Source of the DNA: Podarcis pityusensis
Taxonomy: Eukaryota
Assembly: GCA_964106645.2 (NCBI GenBank)
Contig: OZ067040.1
Direction: 5' to 3' (one strand)
DNA length: 64,000 bases
A program made the translations under genes and the position numbers. The notes under the pieces were generated by a model. That model ran no database searches. It saw only the letters and a list, made by a program, of their open reading frames with translations, and had not been told where the DNA came from. Of this stretch, positions 6,081 to 52,601 are shown in pieces. Numbering within the stretch: position 1 is the first letter of the stretch; every line of letters begins with the position of its first letter.

Positions 6081-6326
6081 AGAGTTACATGACAGTTACA
6101 TAATATTAAAACATGGGACAACTGTAATACTTTATTCTTACTGCTCTCAAAATTGCAAGAAGGGAGCTGCAGTTCAGCAGAAGAACATCTGCTTTGCATG
6201 CAGAAGGCTCTGGGTTCAATCTCTGCCATCTCCAAGGAGGGCTAGGGAAGACCCCTTCTCAAAACCCCACAGAGCTGCTGCCAATCATTTTTGACAACCT
6301 GAGCTTGATGGACCATGGGTCTGACT

Positions 6327-9049: not shown

Positions 9050-9145
9050 GATGGCTCAGTTGGTTAGAGCATGGTGCCGATAACGCCAAGGTTGCAGGTT
9101 TGATCCCCGTATGGGACAGCTGAATATTCCTGCATTGCGGGGGTA
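9050..9145 (+). mobile_element. tRNA-Ile-derived SINE head
   Basis: GCTCAGTTGGTTAGAGCATGGTGCCGATAACGCCAAGGTTGCAGGTTTGATCCCCGTA followed by non-tRNA body TTCCTGCATTGC. Confidence 0.75.
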
Positions 9146-18047: not shown

Positions 18048-18981
18048 AGAATCATAGAATCATAGAGTTGGAAGAGACCACAAGGGCCATCGAGTCCAAC
18101 CCCCTGCCAAGCAGGAAACACCATCAGAGCACTCCTGACATATGGTTGTCAAGCCTCTGCTTAAAGACCTCCAAAGAAGGAGACTCCACCACATTCCTTG
18201 GCAGCAAATTCCACTGTCAAACAGCTCTTACTGTCAGGAAGTTCTTCCTAATGTTTAGGTGGAATCTTCTTTCTTGTAGTTTGGATCCATTGCTCCGTGT
18301 CCGCTTCTCTGGAGCAGCAGAAAACAATCTTTCTCCCTCCTCTATGTGACATCCTTTTATATATTTGAACATGGCTATCATATCACCCCTTAACCTCCTC
18401 TTCTCCAGGCTAAACATGCCCAGCTCCCTTAGCCGTTCCTCATAAGGCATCGTTTCCAGGCCTTTGACCATTTTGGTTGCCCTCCTCTGGACACGTTCCA
18501 GATTGTCAGTGTCCTTCTTGAACTGTGGTGCCCAGAACTGGACACAGTACTCCAGGTGAGGTCTGACCAGAGCAGAATACAGTGGCACTATTACTTCCCT
18601 TGATCTAGATGCTATACTCCTATTGATGCAGCCCAGAATTGCATTGGCTTTTTTAGCTGCCGCGTCACACTGTTGGCTCATGTCAAGTTTGTGGTCAACC
18701 AAGACTCCTAGATCCTTTTCCCATGTACTGCTCTCAAGCCAGGTGTCACCCATCTTGTATTTGTGCCTCTCATTTTTTTTGCCCAAGTGCAATACTTTAC
18801 ATTTCTCCCTGTTAAAATTCATCTTGTTTGTTTTGGCCCAGTTCTCTAATCTGTCAAGGTCGTTTTGAAGTGTGATCCTGTCCTCTGGGGTGTTAGCCAC
18901 CCCTCCCAGTTTGGTGTCATCTGCAAATTTGATCAGGATGCCCTTGAGTCCATCATCCAAGTCGTTGATAAAGATGTTGAA
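18048..18981 (-). mobile_element. 5'-truncated CR1 LINE (RT C-terminal region, open frame)
   Basis: ORF with FADD, LGCINRS and [19 protein letters not shown]; (TTCTATGA)n tail; possible TSD ATCCCT. Confidence 0.95.
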
Positions 18982-19186
18982 TGCATCCCTGTATGGGACA
19001 TCTGCATAGTCATGCATGGACTTCCAACTCTACAATTCTATGATCCTATTTCAGGTCTGCTTCTTGTTTCTGGTCTAACATCCAAAGGGGAAAAACCTGA
19101 CTGTCCCCCACAGTGAATAGGCCCTGTGTATTTTGGCAAGAAAACTAAACAAACCGAATGAATGTAAATAAAACAAAACATTATAC

Positions 19187-21003: not shown

Positions 21004-21791
21004 CTGCACAAAGATCTTGTGTAAGTGTGAAATGAACACTTAGGCCTCAAACAATTACAGTGGACTCAGATGTCTGCTTCACCTCCCACCACTGTTTCTC
21101 TCTCCTATTCCTATTTTATAACCCACTTTTCCACATACATTCCTGCAACTTGTGTACATTTAACTTGTGTGCATTCAGCTTTATATGTGTGGCAATTAAA
21201 TAATTTTTTTAAAGGGGACGGGGTTCTGGGGAAAATGACTTTGGCAATCCCACCCACCATTGAACCCAATGGGTTTTGGACCATTTGGGATTTAGGCATG
21301 ATCCCTGGAAGGTAACCCCCATGCAAGCTGTGGGCCTACAGTATTTAAGTAAGACACCACAGATGTTTTAACACATCTTTCTTGGATCATAGTTTTGTTC
21401 TTTGCTAATTGCAATTCTGTATTGCTAAAGCAATGCCATTTTGCTGTACGCAGTGCCTTTTCCTTGACCTGTTTAAGTTAGGTCTGCGACGTCAGCCTGG
21501 CAAACTCCGTAATCTGGGTTGTGGCATATAAATTCAAGGCAGGGATAGTCAACATGGCCCCCTCCGGTTGTTGTTGGACTCACAGCCCAAACAGCCAATG
21601 GTGAGGGATAATGGGATTTCAGCTGCACATTCCAAGCTAAACACATTGTAAGTTTACTTAAGAGCAGGGACAGCGAACCTGTACCCTACACCTACCCACA
21701 GATGTGGCTGCACTATAATGCTCAGCACCCTTGGCCACAGACTATGGTAGCTGAGGCTGTGGGGAGCTAGAGCCTAACTACACCTGAAAGA

Positions 21792-21989
21792 GTTACAGGT
21801 AGGTAGCCGTGTTGGTCTGCCATAGTCGAAACAAATTAAAAAGTTCCTTCCAGTAGCACTTTAGAGACCAACTAAGTTTGTTATTGGTATGAGCTTTCGT
21901 GTGGTATCTGAAGAAGTGTGCATGCACACAAAAGCTCATACCAAGAGTTGGTCTCTAAGGTGCTACTGGAAGGAATTTTTTAATTTTGT
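21792..21989. mobile_element. Short palindromic Penelope-like element (same family, opposite orientation), inserted in a hAT MITE
   Basis: Homologous to 41018-41236; direct repeat TACACCTGAAAGA (21779-21791 and 21990-22002). Confidence 0.75.
21902..21943 (+). ncRNA. Hammerhead ribozyme motif, probably inactive (GAAA->AAAA at 21930)
   Basis: UGGUAU-CUGAAGA-A-GUGUG(caug)CACAC-AAAA-GC-UC-AUACCA. Confidence 0.6.
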
Positions 21990-22698
21990 TACACCTGAAA
22001 GACTACAGATTCCCCATCCATGATTAAGAGGCAGGCTATGTGCACCGTTAATCACACTAGGATGCTTCAGATTGGTTACTTTTATTTTGAAGACACAGGT
22101 ACAGGCCCCCACCTGGAGCATGCTTCCTATCTGGACTGTACCCTACACTAGTTTCCTCGATGAAAATTATTATAGGGAACCTGTGCTCCCCTCTCCAGAT
22201 GCTGCTGAACTACACTCCATCACCTCTAGCCAGACTTTTGAAAAGCATGTCTTGTTTGCTCTCCAAGGTACTGTTGAAAATCACCTCTTGACAACACATC
22301 CCTGCTCTGAAGTAAGCTTGTCATGCATCTACCTTGGAATTATGTGAACCTCCTTTGATGAGAGCTAAGTTGTAGATCTTGCTTAGACGCAAGGATGGGA
22401 AGTTATTTTGCCTAGCACCAATTTTTATTTTCTTTCTGATACTCGGGGGTTGGACTCGATGGCCCTTGTGGTCTCTTCCAACTCTATGATTCTATGATTC
22501 TATGATACTCCTTTGAGGATACCTCTAGTTTGCTCTGGGAGAGCAGGAGACAGGGAAGAAGGGGCTCAGTATACAAAAATAGTGACCACTCTATTGCTGC
22601 AAGACCACATGCAATAGGAACAGATAAGTTTACCTGGCAAACTGAAAAACAGTACAGAAATTGTTAACTGCTACAATTGTAACTGGCTGCCATTTCAC

Positions 22699-25407: not shown

Positions 25408-25674
25408 TATTCTGGAAGTTTTTGACATTTTATTATGTTTTTATATTCTGCTGGAAGCCGCCCCGAGTAGCTGGGGAAACCAAGCCAGAGGGGCGGGGTA
25501 TAAATGATAAAATTATTATTATTATTATAGGGGTTAGCCACCGTAGGAAACCGTAAGAAATGGGTCGCTGGACCAGATGGGTCCTCGATCTCAACTCTTA
25601 TGAGATGAGAGGGAGAAGGAATTATAAGCGGCGGCCAACCGCAGGGTGGAAACCGCACCGCGCCGCCCACTCAC

Positions 25675-25725
25675 CCCTCGGAACTCGGGCGCGGCGAGGT
25701 GGCAAAGGCAGTCCACCGCCCCCAT
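25675..25725 (-). CDS. TATDN3: TatD DNase domain-containing 3, exon 1 (MGAVDCLCHLAAPEFRG)
   Basis: ATG at 25725, donor GTGAGT. Matches human VDCHCHLSAPDF except for H->L. Confidence 0.93.
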
Positions 25726-25933
25726 CCCGACGACGCGCGCGGAACCGAACGCCGAGGGGGCTTCGCTTTCCAGCCGGACCTATTTTGCCGAAGCTCCCTC
25801 TCGCGCGCGCAAGTGCGCACAGCCAACCCGCCTTTCAATACGGCTCGGCTTAGCACTGCTTCCGGTTGAGGGAGGGAGATAAAAAAAATCAACGAACGGT
25901 TTATCCGAGAGAGCGGGAAAAAGGCAGGCCGAG
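25726..25933. promoter_or_regulatory. Bidirectional CpG-island promoter of TATDN3/NSL1
   Basis: 208 bp between divergent ATGs; CpG-rich; TCTCGCG (~25799), NRF1-like GCGCAAGTGCGCA, ETS CTTCCGG at 25859-25865. Confidence 0.85.
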
Positions 25934-26116
25934 ATGGAGGAGGCGCCGCCGCCGGCTGCTGCTGCTGCTTCCCCTCGGGACTGCCGGGTGCGGTGCTGCT
26001 CGCGGCGCCAGACGGCCGAGTTGTTGGACTACTGCCAGCCTTTCGTGCGGAAGCTCGGGGAGGGCCAGCCGGTGGAGGCCGAGAGCTTGGAGCAGGCCGT
26101 GGTCGAAGCGATCTGG
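25934..26116 (+). CDS. NSL1: NSL1 (MIS12 kinetochore complex component), exon 1
   Basis: MEEAPP...DCRVRCCSRR...FVRKLG...AIW resembles human DFRVRCTSKR...FVQKLG...AQW; donor GTAAGG. Confidence 0.92.
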
Positions 26117-26627
26117 GTAAGGGCGGCCCAGCTGAAGGGGCGGCTGGGAAGGGGGAGGCCCACACGACCCCCCCCCCACAACTACAGCTTTCGGGCGGCG
26201 CGGGTTGCCCAGTTTCTAAGGCGTGTCAGATCAAAAATCATTTCTCTCCATTGCGTGTCATTGAATTGCTTGTGGAGCCTTGTTCTGTGGTGCTGAGATG
26301 TTTGGTGCAATAATTTCTTCTTTAAAAACTGTTACTTTTCCATATGTAATAGAGTATTATTCTTATTTATTCTGCCTTTTCATCCTGACAGGGGGTCAAG
26401 GCGGCTTTAAGATAAAAGAGAAACAGATCGTTGCAATACAAACATCACAGCTCTAGCTGTTTCCTCAAATATAATTTTAAATGCAGTAAACCACAACAGC
26501 AGCTAGCCGTGTCATTTTTTGAGGTGGGAACAGGGGAAGCATATTGGCAGCTTAAAATTAGAACCATGACTTAAATGCATGTTAAAGGCTCCCATCCAAT
26601 AAGTCTCTCCGGATGTTTCCTCTGAGG

Positions 26628-29063: not shown

Positions 29064-30259
29064 GTATGTGAACTTTTGAATATATTTTTCTTATTTCTGT
29101 GCTGACTTATTTATGTTTTAGTCTTCTGCCTATGAACCCCAACAAATGTATGAACAGAGGGTATCTGCAGGTGCCTTTTAATATACTGGTCCCCTGGCGA
29201 ATAGACATTTTGTTGTGGCAACCGCAACCCAGCTTTAAGGTGCCATTTGGCACCTAGCTTAAATATCTTGAGTTTCTAACAGTGGTTGGGAACCGTATTT
29301 TTAGGTGAGGCAAAAGGATATGTGTAAGCTGCCAGACTTCAAAAATAACTTTTTATAATTTTTAAGTGTACCTGAAGCAATAGGAACATCTGCAGGGAAG
29401 TTGCATTAATTTTTTGTGTGCAATTGATGAATCTTTTGATATTCTTTTATCACCAATTGTACAATACAATGTTAATAATAATAAGTTTGTGTTTTTTAAA
29501 AATATTGTCAGGTTTTGTTATTACTATATTTGTACTATTTGTAGGACTAAAAAAGCCCCCAAAACTTCCTTTTCCCAGGATTTTCTTTTCTTTTTTTTTT
29601 TTTTTTTTTGGGTGTTGCCATGTTTGTCCAGCAGGGGATGCTCAAAATACATCCTTGGCAGTAGCAGTACCTCTGTTTAAGAGGGATAGCTAAGTTAGTC
29701 TTTTGCAGCAAAATCAACAAAAAATCTTGTGGCATCTAAAAGACAAACAAGCTTATTATGCCACAGGTTGCGAACTAGAGGAAGTAGATTCTGGCTTATA
29801 TAATAATAAATGCTCTTTGTGCTTTATTCATCTACCTTACCTAGAAGCTGGTCTGTTAGCCATTTCTTTGGAAATAATTTAATTTTTGAGTAAATCTTCT
29901 AAATTAGATTTAGAATGGAAGTACAGCTAAAGGTTTTGCTGTCTTAATTTAATCACTCGTTGCTGTGAACCTGCTACCACCTGTTGGGAACAAGAAATAA
30001 CTATAGCTAAAAACTTTGCTGTCACTAGTTGTGTGGGTTTTTTTAATGCAACTTACTTTGATGGCATCTCCCTTTTGAAGCTGTTGTTTTCTAGTCAGAT
30101 GAGGTAGATAGCCTTCTGTTCCAGTTCCCTCACCACCCCAATTAGCAGTTACAGCATTGCGGTAGTTGTGAACTGCAACTTTAATTGTACCTAAAGCTGC
30201 CCATTTCTACAACTTGGTGTATCCATCTTCTCTGGTCCTTCTCTGCTTTAAAATGTGCT

Positions 30260-30995: not shown

Positions 30996-31029
30996 TTCCA
31001 CATATCCCTGATCAAGATGGAGTCAAGTA

Positions 31030-31269
31030 CAGTGGTACCTTGGTTTACAAACTTAATCCGTTCCGGAAGTCCGTTCCTAAACCAAAGCATTCTTAAACCA
31101 AGGCGTGGTTTCCTATAGCAATGGGGGACTCAATTTACAAATGGAACACACTCAACATGTTCGGTTTCCAAGGCAAAGTTCACAAACCCAAACACCTACT
31201 TCCGGGTTTGCTGCGTTCTTAATCCAAGTTGTTCATAAACTTAGCTGTTCTTAAACCAAGGTACCACTG
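31030..31269. mobile_element. Tc1/pogo (Tigger-like) MITE
   Basis: TIR CAGTGGTACCTTGGTTTA; TA TSD. Confidence 0.85.
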
Positions 31270-31507
31270 TATAATACATCTTTCAATTTTTAGTTCTTAC
31301 GGTAACTGAAGATAACCTTGTGTTTCTCAGGGAATGGGGTGGGGTGATACCTTAACCATGCATTTCTCAAAGCTCCTTGGGGAATCTTTAAGACCACTGC
31401 GCTTGGAAGAGGAAACATTTTTTGCAGAGATATTGCAAACAAGACTTTCACATAGATTGTCCAAATAATTTTACATACCATATATTCATATCTGTCTTGT
31501 GAATTAG

Positions 31508-33741: not shown

Positions 33742-34025
33742 AGATAGCCATGTTAATCTATTGCTGAAAAAACAGTGCAAATAGAACATTTATTATGGCA
33801 TAAGCTTCATGGACTAGAGTCCATATCATTGGATGCAAGAAGTGTTATCCTAAACTGGCAGGCATATATACACACAGCTGTAAGGGTTTCTTTTTTTCTC
33901 TTCGCCTGTGTGTGTGTATGTGTGTGTGTGTACCTGCCAGTTTAGCTGGTACACCTGACATGGACTCTAGTCCATGAAGCTTATGCCATAATAAATACGT
34001 TAAGTCACTAGAGCCTCTTGTTTAT
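33742..34025. mobile_element. Older palindromic Penelope-like relic with degenerate hammerhead
   Basis: 37-bp perfect inverted repeat (33788-33824 and 33960-33996); TGGAC-tcta-GTCCA stem followed by GAAGCTTA. Confidence 0.55.
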
Positions 34026-40254: not shown

Positions 40255-41017
40255 TGCCACGCCCTCGCCGGCCAGGACCAGGCTCAGGGTGGCTAACATC
40301 AAAACACACAATACATTAAAAACACAAAAATCGAACACTTGATTAAAATACAGCTTAAAATCAAATTAAGATCAGAATGGCAACACACGAATTATAACGA
40401 TAGGGGTTGGGAACATTAAGTGTGCACCAAGCCCCAACTCTTCCCATTTGTGTTATTTGTGTGAGTCTTAGCTATTTGTGCTGATTTTATATGAGCCGGT
40501 GGGAAAAGTTAGGGTTGTACTAGATAAATAAAGGTTATACTAGAGTTGGATTAAGCAGCTTTGTGTTTATGGCAAAGAAAGTATGATTTCAGGCAGGAAG
40601 TAAGCAACCTAGATTTATAACATGACAGTTTAATATCACAGGCTTGACTCAGAGAATCTTTTCAGAGGGCTTTCAAATAGCAAGCAAACAAACAAACAAA
40701 CCTAAACTTGTTATTATGCCTAATCTTGTAAATAAACCCACATACGGTAATTTACTAACCTATAAAAACTTGAATCAACCCACCTGTCCACATTGTACTT
40801 AGGCTAGTCATTTGTGATTTGTGACCGTGAGCAGTCTGTAATGTTACCCTGTCTGGTCAACAGGAAATGATAGTTACTTATCACAGAAAGCCATGTACAA
40901 GCATGCTTTCATTTTTTTATATACAGTATATTTTATAGCTTACATTTTAAGCCAGCTCTTTATCCAAGGAGCCCAGGCTCTCTTTCTGTCCATTGTATCC
41001 TCACAGCAATCAGGCAA

Positions 41018-41236
41018 AATAAAAAAAATCCTTCCAGTAGCACCTTTAAGACCAACTAAGTTAGTTCTTGGTATGAGCTTTCGTGTGAAAGCACACTTCT
41101 TCAGATACTAAAAGATACTAAGTGTGCTTGCACACGAAAGCTCATACCAAGAACTAACTTAGTTGGTCTTAAAGGTGCTACTGGAAGGATTTTTTTTATT
41201 TTGATTATGGCAGACCAACACGGCTACCTATCTGTA
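41018..41236. mobile_element. Short palindromic Penelope-like retroelement insertion
   Basis: 84-bp inverted arms; flanking direct repeat ACAGCAATCAGGCAA (41003-41017 and 41237-41251); hammerhead motif. Confidence 0.75.
41071..41108 (-). ncRNA. Minimal type I hammerhead ribozyme motif (Penelope-like element associated)
   Basis: Minus strand reads GUAU-CUGAAGA-A-GUGUG(cuuu)CACAC-GAAA-GC-UC|AUAC: helix I, full core, helix II and a palindromic AGCU in place of helix III. Confidence 0.7.
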
Positions 41237-41670
41237 ACAGCAATCAGGCAAGATACTGTGACCAGCTAAAGGATACATAGTCAACTTCATGGCTCAACTC
41301 AAATCTCCCTGGTCTAGTACAACTCTTGAACCACTATATCACATTGTTTCTTAACTTATGTGCTGAGTGAATAGGAGTTTGCTCAATTTCAAGAGATGCA
41401 TCCTGTACACGTTCATGGATTTTTTCCCCTCTTAAATTGTTCAGTAATCTGCCCAATGTAGAAAGATCACTGCCGAAACCTATTCGGTACCAATCCTTCA
41501 TGCTAAAAACTTTTGATGCTTTCTCAGTGAAATAAAGTATTTTAAAATGATGTGAAATAGTGGAGACTACCTGTAATAGTGCTCTTGTAATCCTTTTTTT
41601 GTACTTTGTTGTGGGCAAATGAATTTTCTCTCCCTTTTATAGGATATGAAATCATTTTGTTTCTTTGCAG

Positions 41671-42279: not shown

Positions 42280-42650
42280 GGGACGCGGGTGGCGCTGTGG
42301 GTTAAACGACAGCACCTAGGACTTGCCGATCGGAAGGTCGGCGGTTCGAATCCCCGCGACAGGGTGAGCTCCCGTTGCTCAGTCCCTGCTCCTGCCAACC
42401 TAGCATTTTGAAAGCACATCAAAGTGCAAGTAGATAAATAGGTACCGCTCTGGCGGGAAGGTAAACGGCATTTCCATGTGCTGCTCTGGTTCGCCAGAAG
42501 CGGCTTAGTCATGCTGGCCACATGACCCAGAAAAACTGTCTGCGGAAGCGGACAAACGCCGGCTCTCTTGGCCAGTAAAGCGAGATGAGCACTGCAACCC
42601 CAGAGTCGGTCATGACTGGACCTAACGGTCAGGGTTCCCTTTACCTTTAC
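42280..42650 (+). mobile_element. Full-length Sauria SINE
   Basis: GGGACGCGGGTGGCGCTGTGG head, B box GGTTCGAATCC, (ACCTTT)n tail, TSD CTTATGTRTT. Confidence 0.92.
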
Positions 42651-47964: not shown

Positions 47965-49389
47965 TACATTGCCGAGACTGAAATAGGCAGGAGGATTGTG
48001 CTTTGGAAAGACTAATGAACTGCAGCGAAAAGAAAACAGTGTTGCATGCAATAAATCTAGTACACAATGGAAAATTATGCCTTTTGTTTCATTCTGGACG
48101 GCATTCTGGAATTACCAAATTATGGCTAGATGGGAAAACAAGAATATGTGACACTATTTCATCACTTTGGCAAAGGGTCATAGGTCAGTGGTAGGGAGTG
48201 AATTTTTCATGTAAAGGTTTCCCAGTTCAATCCCTGGCGTCCCCAAGCTGGGTAAGACCAGCCAGTGTACACAATACTTAGCTATATGGACAAATGCACT
48301 ATCGTGGTATAAGATGGGTTCCTGTGTTGCATCTTTGCATCAGCTGTAGAGTTGGAGGCGACCTTGAGGGTCATCTAGATCTGTCTCTGCTGTAAGGCAA
48401 CCTGTGATCTTTGGATGAAGGGAGGCATATAAACTGAACAAACAAACAATGGGAAGGGGGGTGTTAACCATTCAGTGGTCTGCCAAGACCCTTGGCAATT
48501 TTCCTTTTTTAATATTTATGTTTTATTGAAAATTTTCCTTTTTTTGGAAAGTTTTATGGACACTTTTCAGAATACATTGTAATAAAAAACCAACTAATCT
48601 AAACAAATAGAAAAAAAGGAAAATGCAAAGTCCTCTCTGATAGGGCTCTTACCCACACACAGAGAGGTGGACTCTCCTGGCTCTCATCTGTGAGCTTCCC
48701 TTTCTTATCCCAGCCTCTCACCCTGGGAAATCTTACTTTCGCTGCCTCTCACACAGGGTCCTTCACCAACCATTCATCCCCTTCATCTACGCGTCATTTC
48801 CTCGTTAACCCAGAGTAGAGGATAAAAGCAAAAGCAAAGCAGGGGGGGAAATATATTAGAGGGATGAAAAAGAAGAGGGGAGGAATAAAAAAGATAAATG
48901 GATGGATGCCTTTTCTGACTATTTAAAGAAATAGTATGATGAACTCGCTAGCAGGATTTGAGCTATGAGCAACAAAAGTAATTAGATGGTAATATTGTGG
49001 TTATGATTTGATAGATAAAAGATAGGGTGCAGCAGAAGTGAAGAAGCAACAACTCCATGGGGAAAGGGGTGGGAAGTCGACGAAAATAAGAATTTTTTTT
49101 GTTTTGTTTTAACTGCATATGTTTAAAAAGTTGAAACTTAATAAGATATAATTAAATATATAAAAGGAAGACATTAGCAGAAAATACAGAAGAGGAACTT
49201 CCAATTTTCCATCTGCTGTTTGCATAAACTATGATTCTTGGTTGAAAGTTTTCGGTGCGAATACAAAGTGAAAGGAAAAAATATAATCACAAAAAGATTT
49301 TTTTAAAAAAATACTTGAATTTGTGATGCAATACGAAATATAAGTCTGTAAGTACTGGAAGCGTGAAATTAATAACAAGGCGATTCTTT

Positions 49390-50250
49390 TTTCAAGCGGC
49401 GCGTGGGCGGCGTTTGGTGGCGAGGTGAGGAACTTCTGGTTTCACACGACCCCTCCGCGCTGATCCGGCCCGGGATGGCAGGCAGGCAGGCGGGGAGCGG
49501 TTCTGGTTGGGGCCGCTGCTCTGGCCGAGACGCGGCGGTGGGGAAAGGGCGAGGGAAAAGCCCCCGTAGCCTCGCTTCCCCCTCGGGCGGCTCCCTCGCC
49601 GCCCCCCGGCCTGTGGTCGCGCAGCCAGTTCCCTCCGAAGTTTCATCCGGGGCGCCACGTGATTTCCACGAAGCCCGCCTCGAGCCCGCCTCGGAAGGCG
49701 CCGCCGCCGCCGCCGCCCGGGCGCCCCAGTCAGGCGAGCGCGGGAGCGGGAGCGGGCGCCTGCCTGCCTGCCTCTGCTCTCTTCCCGGCCGGGTTCTGCC
49801 CCAGCAAGGCGGCGAGCGGCCGGGGAACCACGCGCGCCTCGCGGTTGCCGGCAGCTGCCGGGATGTCCCTGGCTGGGCTTTCCGCCTAGGCTGAGAGGCA
49901 AAGCAAGCCAAGCAGGCAGGCATTCGTCCGGCGCAGCGCGGCGACGACGACGCTCCACCTCTCCGGGGCTCCCCCGATGCGCTTTGGCCGCCAACTCCTG
50001 CCGGCTGCGCGCACAAGGAGGAGCGCCGGCGCCGCCTCGGCGGGATGTCTCAGGGCGCGCCGGCGGCGAGCACTTTGCGAAGGAGCTCCTCTTCGGAGGG
50101 GACGCAGCAGGTAAGGCAGGGAGAGGGACCGAGGCCAGGAAAGGGGACCCGGGGGGAGGAAAAGGGTTGCGCCGAGTCGCCCTTGCGCGCTCCTTCCCAG
50201 CAGTGGCGGACCTACATTGGGGGGGGGGGGGGCTTGAAGCTTGAGCTGCT
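49390..50250. promoter_or_regulatory. BATF3 CpG-island promoter
   Basis: Very GC/CpG-rich; E-box CACGTG at 49656-49661; kB-like sites GGGATGTCCC at 49860-49869 and TGGGCTTTCC at 49874-49883. Confidence 0.8.
50045..50110 (+). CDS. BATF3: Basic leucine zipper ATF-like transcription factor 3, exon 1 (MSQGAPAASTLRRSSSSEGTQQ)
   Basis: Resembles human MSQGLPAAGSVLQRS; donor CAG|GTAAGG. Confidence 0.88.
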
Positions 50251-50484
50251 ATGGGGGCCCCTTCACAACCAGCAACGGGGTCTAACCACGGTTCTCTTCA
50301 ACCATGGGGTTGCTCCATGGCAGATCACCACAATTTGCGTTTTGGGTATCCACTTTCGTGAATTCATAGAATCATTAGAATCTTAAGAGTTGGGAAAGAC
50401 CTCGAGGGTCATCTAGTGCAGGAATCTCAGCTGAAAGCACCCATGACAGGATGGTCATCTAACCTCTGCTTCAAAACCTCCAAG

Positions 50485-50915
50485 CAGCGGCGTAGCGTGA
50501 GTTGTCAGCACCCGGGGCAAGGCAAGTAATTTGCGCCCCCTAACCCGGGGCAAGGCAAGTAATTTGCGCCCCCTAACCCCTAACCTGCCGCCGCTGCCAG
50601 CTTCTTCTTGCTGCTGCCTGGTCTGGTCTGGTCTGGTGTGGTTCTCTCCCACGCTCAGCGCTGCGCTGGGCGGCCGCTGCACTGTCCCTCCCCCAGATAG
50701 TCCCTCGCTCTCTCTCCGCACCACACGCCTGGCACCCACCCCCTCCACAGTGGGCGGCGACCCAGCGGCTCGGATCAGATTCACACAGCCAGCACTGCAG
50801 TGAGAGAGAGTGAGTGAGCCAGGTAGGGGCAGAGAGCTGCGAGTGCGAGCGCGCCCCCCCAGATGTTGCGCCCGGTGCGGCCGACCCCCCCTGCACCCCC
50901 CACGCTACGCCACTG
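50485..50915. mobile_element. GC-rich hAT MITE inserted in a CR1 fragment (~50365-51175, - strand)
   Basis: TIR CAG(C/T)GGCGTAGCGTG; perfect 8-bp TSD CCTCCAAG. Confidence 0.88.
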
Positions 50916-52601
50916 CCTCCAAGGAAAGAGAGTCCATCACCTCTGTGGGAGTCTCTTCCACTGCCAAACAGCAATGACTGTCAGAAAGTTTTTTCAAATG
51001 TTTAGTCGGAATGGCCTTTCTGGTAACTTTAAGCCATTGCCTCGAGTCCCACCCTCCAGAGAAAGCGAGCATGTTCCCTCTTCCATGTGACAACCATTAA
51101 GATATTTGGAGGTGGCTATCGTATCTCCTCTCAGTCTCCTCTTTTCCAGGCTAAACATACCCAGCTCCTCATAAGACTTAGTTTCCAGACCCTTAGCTTA
51201 GTTTCCTCTCTAGGGTCTGTTTTTTCAAAAAAGGGAAGGGGTTATATTAGCCACAGCAGAACAGCCAGCTTACTGTGCTACTTACTCTCAAACTTCGTTG
51301 AAATGTATGCAGCAAAAAAAATTGATTTGTGCTACTTGGGGCTCCTCTGGAATTCAAGACCCTGAAGCTTGAGCTTCATTTAGTTTCATAGTAAATCTGC
51401 CCCATGCTTCTGAGGGATCAGAAATAAAACCACCGAGCAGGGCTGCAGAGGTTTGGTGCTGCTGTGCAGTCTCAAAAACCAAAATCAGATCAAATAAAAA
51501 ATATATGGGGGTGGAGGAGCAGGGCAGCCAAAATGACAGAGGTGTGTGTGGAACGGTTTACTTACCAGGAAAGGCTATGGGGTTTTGTCTTTTCCTTGTT
51601 TTTATTACATATTTTGTGTTTTTAATCTTGTATTTTTGGGCTGTGAACTGCCCTGAGATCTTCAGGCAAAGGGCAGTTTACGAATTTAATAAATAAACGA
51701 AATCTCATGGGGTATGTTTTAGAAGAAATCTGTGAAGCAGGTAAGGTTTGAGGAACAGGTGTGCACAGAAATAATTCCGGGTGAAAGTTTGCTGCATGGC
51801 AGATGACGCTCACGGCCATTCCAACTCTGCAATTCTATGATTCTAAGGTCTATGACTTATAAGTTACAGGTTGCCAACTTGGATATTCTCAATCTTTATG
51901 CGACTGGGACCCCCCCACCCCACCCCACTTGGCACCACTGAAAGGAACCCTGGTGGACTGTGCCTGTCAGGGATCTCCTATGGGACTATACATTTCAGAA
52001 CAAACTTAGAACAAGCTGCTCTGTTTGTCCATTTGACACTAACAGAGCAAAGGCACGCAACTTGAATTTCCCCATTGAACAACAGTCCTATCTTTCTGTG
52101 GCTACAATCCATGATTGCCCTGCTCTGCCTCCACAGCTTGGAGGCAGCAGAGCTTCTCAGTGCCAGTTGATGGAAACCACCAGAGGGGAGAGAGAGGGCT
52201 CTTCGCGCAGGCATCTGGTTGGCCACTGTGAGAAGAGGATGCTAAGCTTAGATGGGCCTGAATTTAAATTGCGTAACAATAACTAACAGATCAGTGACTG
52301 AGAGAGTGAGAAGAAAGAAACTGACTGTTAGGTGGAAGGAGGGAATGAATCAGAGTGGATGGAAAGAGAAAGGAACAGGGAAAGGCAGAAAGGACAATCT
52401 CTTTATATAGATAGGCCACATCCTTGTTCACCCTGAAATGCTAATTTTTAAAAGTCTCCAGGGAAGGAGGCGAGAATTACCCATAGACATCAATGGGGAA
52501 ATTAAACAATCTGATATAACTAGGATCGGGCACAAGCTTGTCCATTTCGCCCTTCCCAAAGCGGGGAGTAGAAAACCACATTGGAGTGGAGCATCCTCAG
52601 T

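Follow-up and report, generated by a model that had tools for sequence, protein, structure and literature searches.

The element at 41003–41251 (copy 1) is a very recent insertion and is asymmetrical: in the sense of the hammerhead motif that it carries, it consists of two 5′-truncated copies of the same element end joined 5′ to 5′. Very probably it is a dead-on-arrival stump that was inserted in trans or in cis by the reverse transcriptase (RT)–endonuclease of an active Penelope-like element (PLE), the mirror being built at each insertion. Since a mirror shape and a small hammerhead are both already known features of PLEs, copy 1 is a fresh example of a known PLE insertion product and not a new fold-back family. 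Its value is that of a clean and still polymorphic example, in which a known empty allele fixes both junctions to the base. The window referred to below is the whole 64 kb stretch of DNA that was analysed.

Anatomy of the insertion

Copy 1 holds an insert of 219 nt (41018–41236) between target-site duplications (TSDs). Its parts, followed by those of a second copy in the window (copy 2), are

41003–41017: left TSD, 15 bp, identical at 15/15 positions to 41237–41251 and present as a single copy in the empty-site contig of run X1
41018–41108, minus strand: tail-less arm, a sense copy of the element end from the first base of helix I onwards
41071–41108, minus strand: minimal type I hammerhead, predicted cut between 41075 and 41074
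41109–41119: central filler, 11 nt, private to copy 1 and absent from copy 2
41120–41203, plus strand: tail-bearing arm, a sense copy without the first 10 nt of the hammerhead
41204–41236, plus strand: unpaired tail, 33 nt, or 35 nt counting 2 nt of microhomology into the TSD
41237–41251: right TSD, 15 bp, duplicate of the left TSD
21779–22002, plus strand: copy 2 including its 13 bp TSDs, insert 21792–21989 (198 nt), built on the same plan as copy 1
21903–21792: tail arm of copy 2
21904–21989: tail-less arm of copy 2, with no filler between the arms

The initial annotation had described a 15 bp direct repeat, 84 bp inverted arms with one mismatch and a length of about 220 bp, all of which are confirmed; the tail and the filler were absent from it. 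The inverted arms (41015–41098 and 41120–41203, 84 nt each) are spaced by 21 nt, and the outermost 3 nt of the left one fall inside the left TSD. The tail-less arm has its 3′ end in a T-rich tract and shares 3 nt of microhomology with the TSD, while the filler repeats the initial 6 nt of this arm. The tail-bearing arm has neither the 5′ strand of helix I nor CUGAAG and thus holds only half a core. Relative to each other, the tail-less arm has 10 nt and the tail arm 33 nt of private sequence. Only 1 of 84 sites differs between the two arms, compared with 7–12 sites when they are set against the arms of copy 2, which indicates that both arms of copy 1 come from one source.

Copy 2, already placed at 21792–21989 in the initial annotation, is a true second copy, with the same layout and a blastn E value of 6e-50 against copy 1. 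Its tail-less arm starts at the same helix I base as that of copy 1. Its tail arm is without 21 nt that are present in the tail-less arm, and the tail is present only in the tail arm. In both copies the tail is found on one end only (about 35 nt in copy 2) and holds a common ATG, at 41207 in copy 1. The hammerhead core of copy 2 carries a change of GAAA to AAAA.

Age, polymorphism and abundance

Contigs of four sequencing runs (X1, X3, X6 and X15) were aligned to 40750–41500, with X1 coming from the species label that had the highest word share (0.86). The figures for joints and loose ends given here and below are those of the best-supported ones listed, and they count contigs, not copies. In X1 a contig of 1,396 nt runs over 40750–41002 and then 41237–41500, holding the TSD once and showing no difference over 253 + 264 nt. 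This exact empty site bears out the earlier view that the element is young, and it shows the insertion to be polymorphic or heterozygous within that species label. In X3 and X6 (species B and D) the flanks are mostly without coverage.

The summed X1 depth is 0.56–1.6 million on the element compared with 28.9 on the flanks; depth of this kind is no copy number, although it suggests that related ends number in the order of ten thousand. At 41238, loose ends in X3 (40 contigs), X6 (51) and X15 (9) identify a family end. The base that copy 1 has at 41047 accounts for about 42% of the X1 depth and that at the mirror position 41171 for about 26%, compared with less than 2% in X3 and X6, which places copy 1 in a recently expanded subfamily; both of its arms carry the subfamily base. 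Family contigs also occur in X15, the RNA origin of which is a guess, and these contigs show no strand, start or level. Insertions such as copy 1 are usable as presence/absence markers.

Probable affiliation with Penelope-like elements

Copy 1 has the features of a PLE insertion: a head-to-head inverted 5′-truncated copy, a one-sided tail of 30–40 bp, a TSD with an empty allele and a minimal type I hammerhead in a terminal repeat. The assignment rests on this architecture, since an autonomous partner (a linked ORF with telomerase-like RT and GIY-YIG endonuclease) was not found. When the 40-codon open frame of the tail arm was searched against longer proteins, there was one candidate and none at E ≤ 10, which is weak evidence. 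Pfam assigned no family to the 11 of 22 window ORFs that were run. A pattern scan of metagenome collections returned eight loci, none with blastn similarity to the element, and that of viral collections 0 matches. To judge from the sequence of the element end, the parent may belong to the Neptune clade, which is marked by its RT phylogeny and by a Zn-finger-like linker between RT and endonuclease. In open papers our literature search returned no description of the squamate family, which subscription papers, supplements and Repbase/Dfam probably annotate. The initial annotation was right in calling the element PLE-type, hammerhead-bearing, abundant and, as inserted, non-coding.

Mechanism of insertion

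This layout agrees with that of PLE insertions in the accessible text of PMC8557442, where an inverted 5′-truncated copy is accompanied by a 30–40 bp tail at one end, and with rotifer Penelope copies, which, in the available sections of PMC3846280, have an inverted pLTR, a 31 bp tail and TSDs of 8–10 bp. Purified PLE protein from a lizard acts in vitro on both target strands, cutting and extending them; it starts reverse transcription at two sites with a spacing equal to the tail and uses hammerhead-uncut RNA; the late steps of insertion are described there as not yet validated (PMC11167929).

Using these data as a guide, copy 1 can be modelled as follows. The endonuclease would nick both target strands 15 nt apart, and each 3′-OH would then prime reverse transcription on element RNA. 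Starting at the outer RT site would give the arm with the tail, and starting at an internal site about 33–35 nt upstream the tail-less arm, with priming at both sites aided by the 2–3 nt of microhomology. Extension of the cDNAs towards the 5′ end of the RNA would end at the first base of helix I in one case and 10 nt short of it in the other. Joining of the cDNA ends through the 11 nt, partly templated filler, followed by gap filling, would generate the TSD. Both arms span the predicted cut site, which means that the hammerhead had left the RNA template uncut. In copies 1 and 2 alike each arm has sequence of its own, so neither is a plain fold-back copy of the other and a longer template must have been copied twice. 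Priming from the two nicked target strands is the most likely source of both arms.

One observation does not fit simple stump formation: random 5′ truncation does not predict that both window copies start at the identical base. A template with a fixed 5′ boundary would account for this and is taken up in the next section.

For rotifer Penelopes the proposed origin of the mirror arm is self-priming, with one cDNA folding back, or copying of an antisense template; Arkhipova and coworkers put forward self-priming on an antisense template for head-to-head junctions (PMC3846280, accessible text). The position of the junction at the helix II hairpin and the repetition of junction sequence in the filler would suit such a route. 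The arm-private sequence in both copies would, however, necessitate a further switch to a longer template, and we regard self-priming as unlikely. Young head-to-head stumps with private arm sequence argue for two-strand priming, and they can be counted genome-wide.

A possible 5′ RNA boundary at helix I

As a refinement of two-strand priming, the template could have been a dedicated short RNA, either the 5′ end of the mRNA or a SINE-like non-autonomous transcript, that starts at or just before helix I. The stumps would then be complete and not truncated, reverse transcription having run off at the 5′ end of the RNA or at a splice junction. Both window copies (2/2) begin with the first base of helix I. 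Among the listed loose ends, 41108 ranks first in X1 (49) and X3 (65) and second in X6 (43). Part of this pile-up is ascertainment, because the reference homology ends there, so that longer copies clip, and because identical continuations collapse into one contig. The continuation past 41108 is heterogeneous (agreement 0.38–0.40). Among the best 12 of 127 filler rows, nine leave at 41106–41109, and the six of these that leave at 41108 agree with the longer consensus over just 1–7 nt. In open papers our literature search found no report of 5′ ends piling up at helix I.

A longer upstream form is present in the X3 and X6 consensus. On the sense strand it has a run of pyrimidines with CAG at its end, one base ahead of helix I, and to judge from these letters it looks like a splice acceptor. 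In Drosophila virilis the 5′ end of helix I is where an intron ends (PMC4209133, available text); this intron end lies 46 + 75 nt after the start site and the tail is the start of the ORF, according to the accessible part of PMC2377424. By analogy, the ATG shared by the tails of copies 1 and 2 may be an ORF start, for which the protein search with the tail-arm frame gave no confirmation. Beyond 41108, the continuation in other copies varies at its third letter (ACT or ACA), as could result from a spliced form or from a second parent subfamily.

Several observations speak against a short template. Ten of the 15 best-supported inversion joints (of 118) leave earlier, at 41039–41101; a form continuing upstream of helix I exists; the relic of another family in the window runs about 45 nt past its hammerhead; and neither a spliced copy nor an RNA start was seen in the contigs examined. 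We put forward only tentatively that the stumps are a complete short 5′ RNA segment, bounded at helix I by a start or splice acceptor and, at the start of the ORF, by the two RT starts, and primed on two strands. If true, tens of thousands of copies would record the RNA 5′ boundary of an active family and also two-strand priming, which until now has been seen in vitro only. If the pile-up at helix I is real, it locates an RNA start or splice acceptor, and the hammerhead would mark this boundary without cutting.

A fixed palindrome or a mirror built at each insertion

In the initial annotation the palindrome was the family unit, a pre-formed non-coding element of fixed length that is transcribed and mobilized whole. 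The two window copies are indeed alike in length (219 and 198 nt) and in layout, and their arms are nearly identical. Their centres, however, differ. In X1 the depth over the centre (41111–41120) is 222–1,018 compared with 0.55–1.38 million at the listed arm positions, less than 0.2% of the arms. Inversion joints, taking the best 15 of 118, are scattered: they leave the left arm at 41039–41108, with 5/15 at 41107–41108, and enter the right arm at 41120–41214. An 84 bp hairpin is moreover predicted to bury the hammerhead. A constant centre, terminal inverted repeats and a fixed TSD length, as expected of a fold-back or MITE-like family, are all lacking. A fixed fold-back unit is thus not supported, and mobilization of the whole palindrome is very improbable. 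The variable ends produced by inversion and truncation that the initial annotation had set against its family are what is seen in the centres, the depth and the joints. The reading as a MITE (miniature inverted-repeat DNA transposon) or a microRNA hairpin draws on the long inverted arms and on the Rfam miRNA models that match the hairpin shape, and we reject it as next to impossible given the asymmetric tail and the variable TSD (15 compared with 13 bp), an inverted repeat that is not terminal (33 nt of tail on one side), a centre that is not fixed, and Rfam scores of 40–48 bits compared with gathering scores of 90–171.

The hammerhead motif

The minus strand at 41108–41071 reads as initially annotated, with the predicted cut in the same place: a 4 bp helix I, CUGAAGA, an extra A, a 5 bp helix II, GAAA and a palindromic AGCU. 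All parts of the published minimal PLE hammerhead are present, namely the core CUGANGA/GAAA/UH, the extra nucleotide and the palindrome that replaces helix III. Both the extra A and the AGCU pointed out initially belong to the consensus in the accessible text of PMC4209133. The same text reports the PLE minimal hammerhead in turtles and snakes, and describes no cleavage as a monomer and weak cleavage as a dimer.

A hammerhead search, as had been proposed, gave this motif as the sole match to a minimal-hammerhead descriptor when both strands of the 64 kb were scanned, compared with one match in total across 30 second-order Markov simulations of the window. With Rfam no hammerhead family reached the gathering threshold anywhere in the window. 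On 40950–41300 at E ≤ 10 there were ten Rfam matches, all below gathering and mostly to hairpin or miRNA models, with no hammerhead among them.

The motif had been called intact. This holds for its letters; the fold is a different matter, as it is predicted to be sequestered in copy 1. In a minus-strand transcript of copy 1 the antisense arm precedes the hammerhead arm, and the predicted energy of the hairpin is −148.3 kcal/mol compared with −107.6 kcal/mol for the hammerhead fold. Forcing the hammerhead costs 40.7 kcal/mol, and the predicted pair probability of helix II is about 1e-11. The only mismatch between the arms of copy 1 lies in the loop, CUUU in the hammerhead and CUUG in the mirror arm. 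For the isolated motif, the predicted fold with CUUU favours a hairpin that buries GAAA. The predicted helix II probability is 0.01 for the 38 nt motif of copy 1, and over the 28 nt that are shared it is 0.00 for copy 1, 0.14 for the mirror arm and 0.88 for copy 2. For the dimer, the predicted energy of the active form is −9.9 kcal/mol compared with a minimum free energy of −24.2 kcal/mol. On these predictions the hammerhead of copy 1 would be sequestered in the hairpin or misfolded, without a partner core, and its cleavage is unlikely. Probably it is a passenger from the pseudo-LTR of the parent and silent in copy 1.

A relic of another family

A relaxed half-hammerhead motif has five matches in the 64 kb, all within copy 1, copy 2 and the following relic.

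33742–33996 (33742–34025 in the initial annotation): older head-to-head element of another hammerhead-bearing family, with a decayed hammerhead and with arms that extend about 45 nt upstream of it
About 33836–33798, minus strand: decayed hammerhead of this relic, with a 6 bp helix II intact in both arms

The initial annotation listed it as an older relic related to copy 1, which is confirmed only in part: it is a head-to-head element with a decayed hammerhead, but neither blastn nor nhmmer finds similarity to copies 1 and 2. When it was aligned to these, 10 and 7 of 1000 shuffles reached the score of the tail arms and 177 and 169 of 1000 that of the hammerhead arms, and among 2,130 window tiles ranked by similarity to the element it is not within the first 25. 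A TSD was sought and none was found. The relic is the same kind of object from a different and distantly similar family, and as such is no evidence for the abundance of the family of copy 1.

The best tile outside the family (score 160), at 29760–29680 on the minus strand, is a degraded single copy of a similar end (nhmmer E value 0.21), with no mirror arm or TSD found.

Surroundings in the window

The host has the look of a squamate reptile: the window has 43% GC, is CpG-depleted and holds the RT fragment and the SINE described below. About 25600–26300 and 49300–51000 are GC- and CpG-rich and resemble CpG-island promoters. An open frame of 270 codons at 18217–19029 (minus strand) matches RVT_1 with an E value of 1.3e-6, just under the cut-off; it is a LINE 3′ fragment, presumably CR1, and is unrelated to the element. 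About 1 kb from copy 1 lies a SINE (about 42280–42650, minus strand), which we take to be a Sauria SINE. The 244 bp element at 31028–31271 has terminal inverted repeats of 25 nt (92%) and internal short repeats, and we assume it to resemble a Tc1/mariner-type MITE. Two tRNA-like Rfam matches on the plus strand (6163–6234, 38.7 bits; 9052–9110, 30.5 bits) are probably SINE heads or tRNA pseudogenes.

Comparison with known systems

Copies 1 and 2 share with endonuclease-bearing PLE insertions the head-to-head arms, the one-sided tail, the variable TSD, the hammerhead in a terminal repeat and the variable truncation (accessible parts of PMC8557442, PMC3846280 and PMC8969392). Unlike the insertions described in these parts they are very short, with arms of about 90–120 nt and no ORF body, and the 5′ ends favour the edge of helix I. 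Their TSDs of 13–15 bp are longer than the 8–10 bp of the rotifer copies in the available text of PMC3846280. According to the sections of PMC4209133 at hand, helix II has 7–8 bp in the Schistosoma families compared with 5 bp here, and, set against the metazoan PLE minimal hammerheads covered there, copy 1 has a single complete core that lies opposite its own antisense.

Non-LTR retrozymes, as presented in the available portions of PMC7229834 and bioRxiv 10.64898/2026.07.22.740005, are likewise small, non-coding and PLE-related and carry a type I hammerhead. They consist of head-to-tail tandem units of 150–400 nt with a hammerhead in each unit, whereas copy 1 has one core in one head-to-head insertion, and this assignment was rejected.

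The Poseidon element of Anolis carolinensis (PAc) is a different element, and the accessible part of PMC11167929 holds no analysis of head-to-head stumps. The target site of copy 1 (6/15 G+C, no ATT at the left junction) is unlike that of PAc (PMC11167929). The likeness lies in what PAc does in vitro: two RT start sites give ends with and without a tail, both strands are cut and extended, and RNA that the hammerhead has left uncut is used (PMC11167929).
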